From: Enterobacteria phage mEp043 c-1
DNA: 42,780 nucleotides
Sequence record: NC_019706.1
Strand: one strand, 5' to 3'
Part shown: positions 29,122-30,090 of the stretch, in pieces
How the letters are laid out: every line of letters begins with the position of its first letter
Position numbering within the stretch: the stretch's first letter is position 1
Position numbers and translations under genes: made by a program
The notes under the pieces: model-generated
What the model was told of the DNA's origin: nothing
Database searches by the model: none
Seen by the model: the letters and a program-made list of their open reading frames with translations, nothing else

Positions 29122-30090
29122 TTAGTAGGTTATTTTTGTTGCGAATACTTCGCCTTTTACGATGGCTGTTATGATATTTTTAGCAACATCTTCTGATGCG
29201 CCAACCTTGATAAGGTCAGCAAGTATTTTGTTATTTACTTCTTTCCGGTGAGCTTTATCCTTTGCTCTACGCTCTTCTTCGTCCTTGATTCTTTTTTCTT
29301 CTGCTATTCTGGCTTGCTCTTTTGCTTCAGCCTCGCGCCGGATTCGTTCAGCCTCCTCCTGTGCTTTTCGGCGTTCTGCTTCAATTGCCGCCTGCTTTTC
29401 TCTTTCAGCTCGTTCTGCTGCCTCTTTTGCTTCGCGCTGTGCTCGTTGCTCGGCTTCAATGCGTTCACGCTCTGCACGTTCCGCTGCGGCCTTAGCTTCT
29501 GCTTCTCGCCTTGCTGCTGCTTCAATTTCGGCTTTTGCCTTTGCTTCGGCTTCAGATCTGGCTTTCTCTTCAGCTTCTCTTTTTAAGCGTTCTTCATGCT
29601 CTCGCTTTTCCTGCTCCGCTTTGAGTCTTGCCTCTTCTCTTTGGCGGTCAAATTCGCGATCCATCAAAATCGCTATTTCATGGTCAGACTCAATTTGCTT
29701 TGCGAGAGCTTCAGCTGCTGCCTTAGCTTCTTCTTCGGCTTTAATCCGCGCCTGCTCCTCCTCATAATCAGTAAGAGGCTGGCGCGCCTTGGCTTTCAGT
29801 TCATCAAGGCGATCACGCACTGTCTTGCGGTTGGCATCAATTAGCTTTGGAATTTCCTTAAGTTCAGCAACAAGGTCTTTGCCAAGACCATCGAGATATG
29901 TTTTCGTCTGCGCAACTTTATACGCCAGAGAAGCGATCTCCTTTCTGCCCTTTGCCGTTGTGATATCAGGCACAAAGGACATAACTTCACGTTCAACCTT
30001 TTGAAGGATTTCTTCAATCTGGTCGGCAGACTGAAATACAGTCATTGCATTTGCTTTTTCAATAACAACTAAATCTGTTACTTCACTCAT
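29122..30090 (-). CDS. ER/K-rich charged-helix protein of unknown function
   Basis: 322 aa; strong RBS GGAGGA; about 110-aa N-terminal domain, about 170 aa of E/R/K/A low-complexity sequence, short C-terminal domain. Confidence 0.7.
   Translation of the reverse strand: MSEVTDLVVIEKANAMTVFQSADQIEEILQKVEREVMSFVPDITTAKGRKEIASLAYKVAQTKTYLDGLGKDLVAELKEIPKLIDANRKTVRDRLDELKAKARQPLTDYEEEQARIKAEEEAKAAAEALAKQIESDHEIAILMDREFDRQREEARLKAEQEKREHEERLKREAEEKARSEAEAKAKAEIEAAARREAEAKAAAERAERERIEAEQRAQREAKEAAERAEREKQAAIEAERRKAQEEAERIRREAEAKEQARIAEEKRIKDEEERRAKDKAHRKEVNNKILADLIKVGASEDVAKNIITAIVKGEVFATKITY

Follow-up and report, generated by a model that had tools for sequence, protein, structure and literature searches.

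A phi80 Agt/Mog homolog in Enterobacteria phage mEp043 c-1, predicted to form a long helical rod, and the placement of its family beside phage recombination modules

The accessory recombination proteins of lambdoid phages are believed to modulate either host nucleases or recombination itself (PMC12315714). One such protein is GamL of phage phi80 (Rotman et al. 2012, cited in the same 2025 survey, PMC12315714), which GenBank (JX871397) describes as an inhibitor of RecBCD/SbcCD, 'toxic without Mog'; the gene that immediately precedes gamL, agt, is annotated in the same entry as encoding an 'anti-toxin for Gam; Mog (modifier of Gam)'. Here we analyze a gene of Enterobacteria phage mEp043 c-1 (NC_019706.1; hereinafter, the window denotes the entire stretch of 42,780 nucleotides (nt) that was examined), the 322 amino acid (aa) product of which can be assigned to the Agt/Mog family with high confidence on the strength of sequence comparison. 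The gene is an ATG-started open reading frame (ORF) at positions 29122-30090 on the minus strand, and both these coordinates and the location between cIII and N are as given in the original prediction for this region, which was made from the DNA sequence alone.

In a BLASTP comparison, the mEp043 protein and Agt/Mog of phi80 (Lula) (PHI80_40, AFV29176.1), which is also 322 aa long, align colinearly from residue 1 to residue 322 with 51% identity (E-value 7e-65), and the two proteins share the N-terminal domain, the DHExALLM motif, the charged helix and the C-terminal module. The match to PHROG 1376, a family of unknown function in the PHROGs collection, likewise extends over residues 1-322 (E-value 1.5e-110). 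The original prediction did not recognize the protein, a verdict that has to be replaced with membership in this family; at least one annotator had previously pointed out the homology to Agt, in phage HF4s. No Pfam family matched the full-length protein at an E-value of 1 or below, and none matched other family members or 40 N-terminal domains; Pfam, NCBIfam and PADLOC scans of the 322-aa protein yielded no meaningful match, and neither profiles of the N-terminal domain and of the full alignment nor fold comparison detected a sequence or fold match in PDB. For the terminal domains, there was no significant Pfam or PDB profile match, and no confident homology to a characterized structural or housekeeping protein was detected.

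The family is large and widespread. Translated searches showed that the N-terminal 110-155 residues are common to phi80 agt and to genes from phages of Pseudomonas (D3 orf53 and PAJU2), Vibrio, Klebsiella, Acinetobacter, Sinorhizobium and other hosts. An exhaustive HMMER search with residues 1-150 retrieved 5,050 clusters (at 50% identity) at E-values of 1e-3 or below and 3,618 clusters at 1e-10 or below. Thus, a family that comprises more than 5,000 such clusters lacks a Pfam model and a structure and carries a misleading name (see below). The literature searched (for Agt, GamL, PHROG 1376 and mEp043) contained no publication on this gene, and the family-wide features described here, namely the single-helix signature, the constrained length, the placement beside four types of annealing proteins and the two-way dissociation from GamL, appear to be absent from the searchable literature. 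One member stands apart by its listed host: the N-terminal domain encoded by Leptolyngbya phage Lbo-JY16 (PP438408.1; locus L055) is 50% identical to the Escherichia coli one and very close to the versions from Pseudomonas phages, and since the family otherwise looks restricted to phages of Proteobacteria, the assignment of this phage to a cyanobacterial host may deserve a check.

The 322-aa protein combines regions of distinct composition. The composition of residues 1-108 is mixed; the 177-aa segment at residues 109-285 is dominated by E (28%), A (24%), R (16%) and K (11%), which jointly account for 79% of the positions; and residues 286-322 are mixed and hydrophobic. Composition, charge pattern and AlphaFold2 modeling all support the original description of an N-terminal domain followed by a helical spacer of the ER/K type of ~170 residues and a short C-terminal domain. 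This tripartite layout is constant among 113 diverse members, the set on which the family-wide architecture was assessed; in this set, the charged helix has a median length of 167 aa, with a 10-90% range of 141-207 aa. The N-terminal domain terminates at a conserved RxPLTxWE junction and contains residues R49, K63, G70, R103, P105, L106 and E110 that are invariant among 40 diverse members. The conserved hydrophobic island at residues 133-149 is shared with phi80 Agt and is missing from a natural variant of 245 aa. An alignment of 86 C-termini yields the motif H[RK]xxhN..L...G..E..AK....AIa.G.I..h.I.Y, which ends with a near-invariant C-terminal tyrosine.

Analysis of the charge distribution shows that the central region carries the sequence signature of a stable single alpha-helix (SAH). 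When residues 150-285 were compared with composition-preserving shuffles of the same segment, opposite charges spaced i/i+4 were found to be about twice as frequent as in the shuffled sequences (z = +4.7 and +6.7), and like charges at this spacing were depleted, with 4 observed against 24 expected (z = -5.3). The SAH-type i/i+4 salt-bridge pattern is present in 96-98% of the 113 family members. At a coarser level, this helix reads as degenerate 11-residue units (RAERERIEAEQ, RAQREAKEAAE, RAEREKQAAIE and so on).

The AlphaFold2 monomer model of the protein, built from a 113-sequence alignment (mean predicted local distance difference test score (pLDDT) of 86), consists of helices at residues 12-20, 22-37 and 46-295, the latter with a single kink of low confidence at residues 196-208, and a short helix at residues 300-311. 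The natural 245-aa variant is modeled with one unbroken straight helix at residues 46-218 (pLDDT 93-97). Given that the kink lies exactly midway between the terminal domains, we considered a hairpin in which an antiparallel arm would bring the two ends together; this arrangement was dropped because the model of the 245-aa variant is a single straight helix without a turn. Overall, the most fitting description of the predicted structure is a rod capped by small domains on both sides. The helix at residues 46-295 would span ~37 nm, and one of the family-median length, ~167 residues, ~25 nm. A transmembrane anchor was not found in the 322-aa protein (the maximum Kyte-Doolittle value for a 19-aa window is 1.03, at residue 293), and the Agt-family proteins would be cytoplasmic, all-helical rods.

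The original prediction allowed for either a single helix or a coiled-coil spacer. The possibility that the charged region is part of a homodimeric or antiparallel coiled coil and not an SAH is, in our assessment, unlikely although far from negligible. In favor of a coiled coil are the alanine content of 24% and the 11/3 periodicity with which alanine and hydrophobic residues recur (p = 0.002 in this protein, and p < 0.05 in 35% of the family members), as well as the hydrophobic seam of the N-terminal domain discussed below, which suggests oligomerization; the midway kink in the model points in the same direction. The 11-residue periodicity could reflect either a straight stripe of alanines or a weak packing surface. 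Evidence against a coiled coil is that no heptad hydrophobic seam was found (power at period 3.5 against shuffles, p = 0.37-0.73), heptad periodicity at p < 0.05 is observed in 7% of the family members, which is the chance level, strongly hydrophobic residues occur only once per 12-25 positions within residues 150-285, and the model of the shorter variant does not reproduce the hairpin.

The two ends of the rod have features suggestive of binding. The long helix of the N-terminal domain carries a conserved 3-4 hydrophobic seam (residues 52-109, p < 0.001), which exceeds what the helices at residues 12-37 can bury and hence suggests self-association of this domain or a bound partner. For the C-terminal module, only sub-threshold similarity to UBA-like three-helix modules was detected, namely to the LATS2 UBA domain (E-value 0.027) and to RuvA domain III (E-values 0.17-0.6); the Pfam RuvA_C model matches 5 of the 86 C-termini, also below threshold (best E-value 0.007). 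We regard the UBA-like nature of this module as a lead, not a finding.

Examination of gene neighborhoods at 49 loci from different bacterial species (including Erwinia, Pantoea, Yersinia, Proteus, Morganella, Pseudomonas, Achromobacter, Aeromonas and Methylococcaceae) shows that, across proteobacterial phages, the Agt-family gene is located directly beside a homologous recombination module, whatever annealing protein this module uses. The nearest large neighbor encodes an annealing protein in 41 of the 49 loci as judged by local iterated hidden Markov models (HMMs), and in up to ~44 when Pfam AAA_24 matches are added. Among the downstream ORFs of 140 aa or more, the first codes for ERF in 19 loci, RecT in 9, a Rad52-like protein in 4 and an AAA_24/Sak4-like protein in 4, and the second such ORF for a YqaJ exonuclease in 19 and SSB in 10; RecT is encoded by the nearest upstream ORF in another arrangement found in 4 of the 49. 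At ~18 loci, the annealing-protein gene starts 8-25 nt past the stop codon of the Agt-family gene. Examples from annotated phages are the homolog in Pseudomonas phage D3, which is followed by ERF and then an exonuclease, and those in phiLM21 (adjoining ERF, YqaJ and NinB), TCUAN1 (adjoining Bet), a Klebsiella phage (adjoining GamL, Bet and Exo) and phiPLPE (RecE and Bet upstream, RdgC downstream). In mEp043 itself, the recombination module consists of Erf, an SSB-like protein and Abc2. Near-identical copies of the gene in E. coli precede four different modules (Erf with SSB, Rad52-like protein with SSB, RecT, and the Sak4 ATPase), which argues that the action of the protein does not depend on a particular recombinase.

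Several additional features of these neighborhoods were noticed. In the RecT-type modules of E. coli relatives (L014, L022 and similar loci), RecT is preceded by a 103-aa ORF (cluster C19), and next comes a 146-aa protein (cluster C17) encoded after RecT that may resemble Siphovirus Gp157. The nearest large upstream neighbor is Gad1, a Gabija anti-defense protein, in one family locus and a pentapeptide-repeat protein in two; the region upstream of the Agt-family gene is a variable accessory slot. A possible parallel with DUF1351, which would precede the recombinase in Gram-positive phages, was not upheld: Staphylococcus phage 80alpha has small DUF1108 and DUF2483 genes at this place, and none of the family members matches DUF1351.

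Combining the predicted architecture with this genomic association, we tentatively favor, at somewhat less than even confidence, the reading of the Agt-family protein as a spacer-type adaptor that is associated with the recombination module and has a host-conserved target. The gene belongs to the leftward early operon and has a terminator-like hairpin directly upstream, so its transcription is probably initiated at pL and subject to antitermination by N, and the protein would be synthesized early. Through its hydrophobic seam, the N-terminal domain would associate with itself or with a partner, the C-terminal module, small and possibly UBA-like, would bind a protein, and the rigid charged helix would fix the distance between the two ends. 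The target of the adaptor would be one shared by all hosts, namely the machinery of DNA-end processing or of recombination and replication, rather than any specific recombinase of a phage; the relief of GamL toxicity that has been reported for Agt of phi80 would then be one manifestation of this activity. A broader proposal, which we consider rather doubtful, is that the Agt family is a general, so far unrecognized component of the recombination modules of proteobacterial phages, an SAH 'ruler' adaptor of roughly constant length (~25 nm) that would work with any of the four types of annealing proteins via the conserved host target and would render the recombination and anti-nuclease systems of phages efficient or non-toxic. 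If this is the case, addition of an Agt-family protein could improve recombineering systems, and the family would be among the first functional single-helix spacers described in a phage. In any case, the placement beside four unrelated types of annealing proteins suggests that an accessory function is yet to be accounted for in homologous recombination of phages, the process that drives phage mosaicism and underlies recombineering tools.

Several points weigh against the adaptor reading. The sole experimental anchor is the database annotation for phi80. A shared conserved early operon is not proof of shared function, and in E. coli the junction between the gene and the recombination module is a recombination breakpoint, so that the two are separately inheritable; in mEp043, cIII, kil and a 56-aa ORF lie between the gene and erf. 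The similarity of the C-terminal module to UBA-like domains is below significance, the binding partner is putative, and the oligomeric state and the single-helix behavior are predictions only.

The original prediction pointed out that the gene occupies the position of lambda superinfection exclusion and anti-restriction genes. An accessory role in counter-defense or exclusion, be it anti-restriction, superinfection exclusion or an inhibitor or decoy of host immunity, appears unlikely. The gene does sit between N and cIII, in the variable region where lambda carries ral and sieB, the neighbors of its relatives are sometimes Lar-like, methylase or Gad1 genes, and the phenotype in phi80 might stem from suppressing a response that the host mounts when RecBCD is inhibited. 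However, the map position is all that the protein shares with SieB and Ral: there is no match to either of these, to any Pfam family or to a defense family in PADLOC, and no transmembrane segment of the kind present in SieB and often seen in exclusion proteins. The only PADLOC hit of the 322-aa protein, to LmuB (E-value 0.026, 10.8 bits), is a coiled-coil artifact, and the phi80 and D3 homologs gave no match. Furthermore, unlike sporadic counter-defense genes with fast turnover, this very large family retains its architecture and its placement by annealing-protein genes in phages of alpha-, beta- and gammaproteobacteria; in distant phages, the gene accompanies single-strand annealing and recombination genes and not those for exclusion or restriction alleviation, and the functional suggestion drawn from its position is therefore unsupported.

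An improbable alternative is a DNA-binding helical scaffold of KfrA-like design that would tether phage DNA or recombination intermediates. Plasmid KfrA, also encoded by mobile elements, likewise consists of a small N-terminal domain and a helix of ~200-250 residues, and the long helix of the N-terminal domain displays a conserved basic stripe (K47, R49, K58, K63, K71, K78, K82, R88, K89, R92 and R103), with a net charge of about +3 for this helix and about +2 for the C-terminal module. Conversely, the N-terminal domain in its entirety is slightly acidic, and the median net charge of the full protein is -9, an acidity that speaks for binding of proteins rather than of DNA; fold comparison yielded no match to DNA-binding domains; and the KfrA tails are heptad coiled coils, unlike the helix in question, with no detectable homology between the two proteins. 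We specifically looked for KfrA_N, and neither this nor any other DNA-binding Pfam domain was found in scans of the full protein and of 40 N-terminal domains, so the KfrA-type reading was abandoned.

The possibility suggested by the phi80 annotation itself, that the protein is a dedicated antitoxin that binds and neutralizes the RecBCD/SbcCD inhibitor GamL within a toxin-antitoxin-like pair, is very improbable. The gamL gene follows agt after 8 nt in phi80, Klebsiella phage ST101-KPC2phi6.1 and locus L103, and in 28 of the 74 GamL loci with sufficient upstream sequence, the gene immediately upstream is Agt-like and lies at a fixed distance. In the other 46, there is no Agt-like gene within 2.5 kb; kil is usually the gene directly upstream, and the gap between the phi80-type kil and GamL is 72-79 nt in most GamL loci (viral contigs L148-L227). 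Because kil, and not agt, adjoins most GamL loci, GamL is commonly carried without its annotated antidote. Reciprocally, GamL is present in only 1-2 of 56 diverse Agt-family loci and absent from 54, and no GamL homolog was found in the mEp043 window by tblastn, so that the only function reported for Agt lacks a substrate in this phage; thus, adjacency to gamL does not define the family, most members of which lack it. Given the rarity of GamL at Agt loci and the lack of Agt at most GamL loci, counteracting GamL cannot be the general role of the family, nor can it be that of the mEp043 protein, and a 322-aa rod is unlike a typical small antitoxin. The antidote label cannot describe most of the members, which turns the family into a defined, testable question.

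Finally, the TolA-like cell-envelope function implied by the GenBank and RefSeq names 'TolA' and 'cell envelope biogenesis protein TolA', which arise automatically because the Lys/Glu/Ala-rich helical segment resembles the long, similarly composed helical domain II of TolA, can be dismissed, given that the score against the NCBIfam model tolA_full (TIGR02794/COG3064) is 9 bits against a cutoff of 59.45 (E-value 0.72), that the transmembrane anchor and TolA domain III are missing, with no TolA match even for C-terminal fragments and no other Pfam match, and that the gene is part of a phage early operon. The PGAP name is attached to the gene in hundreds of E. coli RefSeq genomes (e.g., NZ_CP112988.1, 1477127-1478095), and 'TolA' also occurs in Pharokka-style annotations; judging from the above comparisons, it is a propagated compositional misannotation.

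ORF 29122-30090 is a real gene. It is 100% identical in the mEp043 record PV340537.1, the frame is intact and exactly 322 aa long in 78 of 80 close relatives from IMG/VR, the other two being frameshifted, and close relatives are carried by 530 of 5,426 complete E. coli genomes (~10%), including Stx1a-converting phages. The 'hypothetical protein (x2)' of some phage records is not a split gene but reflects a small ORF that overlaps from upstream. In the central part of the gene, the coding strand is 72% purine, the maximum for the window (mean 0.49, standard deviation 0.05), and this purine richness accounts for the low-complexity ORFs rich in S, A, F, C and L on the plus strand (29248-29586, 29285-29767, 29322-29495 and 29596-29844), in agreement with the original view that these are spurious. 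The features of the gene and of its surroundings are compiled in Table 1.

Table 1. Coordinates of the Agt/Mog homolog, its predicted parts and the adjacent early genes in the mEp043 window
Feature	Coordinates	Strand	Basis or remarks
N	30926-31252		upstream of the 322-aa gene; mEp043 annotation, not Pfam
Terminator-like hairpin, 8-bp stem (5 G-C pairs) and T7 tract	30103..30131	-	directly upstream of the 322-aa gene
Ribosome-binding site GGAGG	30095..30099	-	4 nt 5' of ATG; read from sequence
Whole gene, phi80 Agt/Mog homolog	29122..30090	-	stop codon 29122-29124; 322 aa
N-terminal domain, aa 1-110	29761..30090	-	predicted helices 12-20 and 22-37; loop motif VPDxSTxKGR; start of long helix
Central E/A/R/K helix, aa 111-285	29236..29760	-	composition; pure ER/K-type stretch ~aa 150-285
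Conserved hydrophobic island IESDHEIAILMDREFDR, aa 133-149	29644..29694	-	family consensus ExDHExALLxNxxFDR; predicted within helix
C-terminal domain (predicted), aa 286-322	29125..29235	-	conserved motif starts H281-R282-K283; pLDDT 91-96
Direct repeat copy 1, 27 nt	29479..29505	.	repeat family D1; flanks 231-nt deletion
Direct repeat copy 2, 27 nt	29710..29736	.	89% identical to copy 1, 231 nt away
cIII, directly downstream of the 322-aa gene	28966..29097	-	Pfam Lambda_CIII, E 4e-15
kil	28829..28981	-	Pfam Lambda_Kil, E 1.6e-20
Erf single-strand annealing protein	27967..28602	-	Pfam ERF, E 6.5e-44
SSB-like 127-aa protein ending ...EYDDSIPF	27584..27967	-	sequence; 'ssb' in a relative; no Pfam SSB match
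Abc2 anti-RecBCD protein	27267..27560	-	Pfam Anti-RecBCD_p2, E 9.6e-63

The length of the protein is usually maintained despite the repeat-prone DNA but is not absolutely fixed. One Klebsiella phage homolog also is 322 aa long, as is phi80 Agt, and most of the ER/K stretch is missing from other variants found in Klebsiella, which are 262 and 221 aa long. The 245-aa variant from E. coli (P0010) results from an in-frame deletion of 231 nt (77 codons) between the two 27-nt direct repeats.

Among the neighboring genes of mEp043, the 127-aa SSB-like protein may represent an atypical phage SSB type. The 56-aa ORF (28583-28753, minus strand) occupies the position of P22 arf, just upstream of erf, and overlaps another ORF (28662-28847, minus strand); GenBank annotates the overlapping alternative frame in this region, and both frames recur among the relatives (clusters C4 and C9). 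The tail of the 56-aa product (...LGPCPF) resembles the C-terminal tails of GamL (...ICPF, ...GCPF) and SSB (...DSIPF), and the ORF showed neither BLAST similarity to GamL nor a Pfam match. A 104-aa ORF directly downstream of cI, in the lambda rex position (31730-32044, minus strand), encodes a clear hydrophobic N-terminal segment, IPGIVVAVVIICFIWAKL, and is a more plausible exclusion-type candidate than the 322-aa protein.

With respect to structure, the closest known systems are the ER/K SAH spacers, such as those of myosin VI/X and caldesmon, studied by Sivaramakrishnan, Spudich, Knight, Peckham and their colleagues. Compared with these, the helix of the mEp043 protein is much richer in alanine and has a hendecad tendency, and its monomeric behavior is a prediction. 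With respect to genomic location, the counterparts are lambda Gam, phi80 GamL and P22 Abc1, Abc2 and Arf, which, like the gene described here, lie in or beside the recombination module and are not recombinases. None of them shows sequence or fold similarity to the 322-aa protein, which is much larger and predicted to be rod-shaped, and given that an Agt-type protein is found together with Abc2 in mEp043 and with GamL in phi80, it is not a simple substitute for either. As for phi80 agt, it is likewise located in the leftward early operon, where it precedes the recombination genes; in phi80 these are gamL, recT and exo, whereas mEp043 has erf, the ssb-like gene and abc2 instead.

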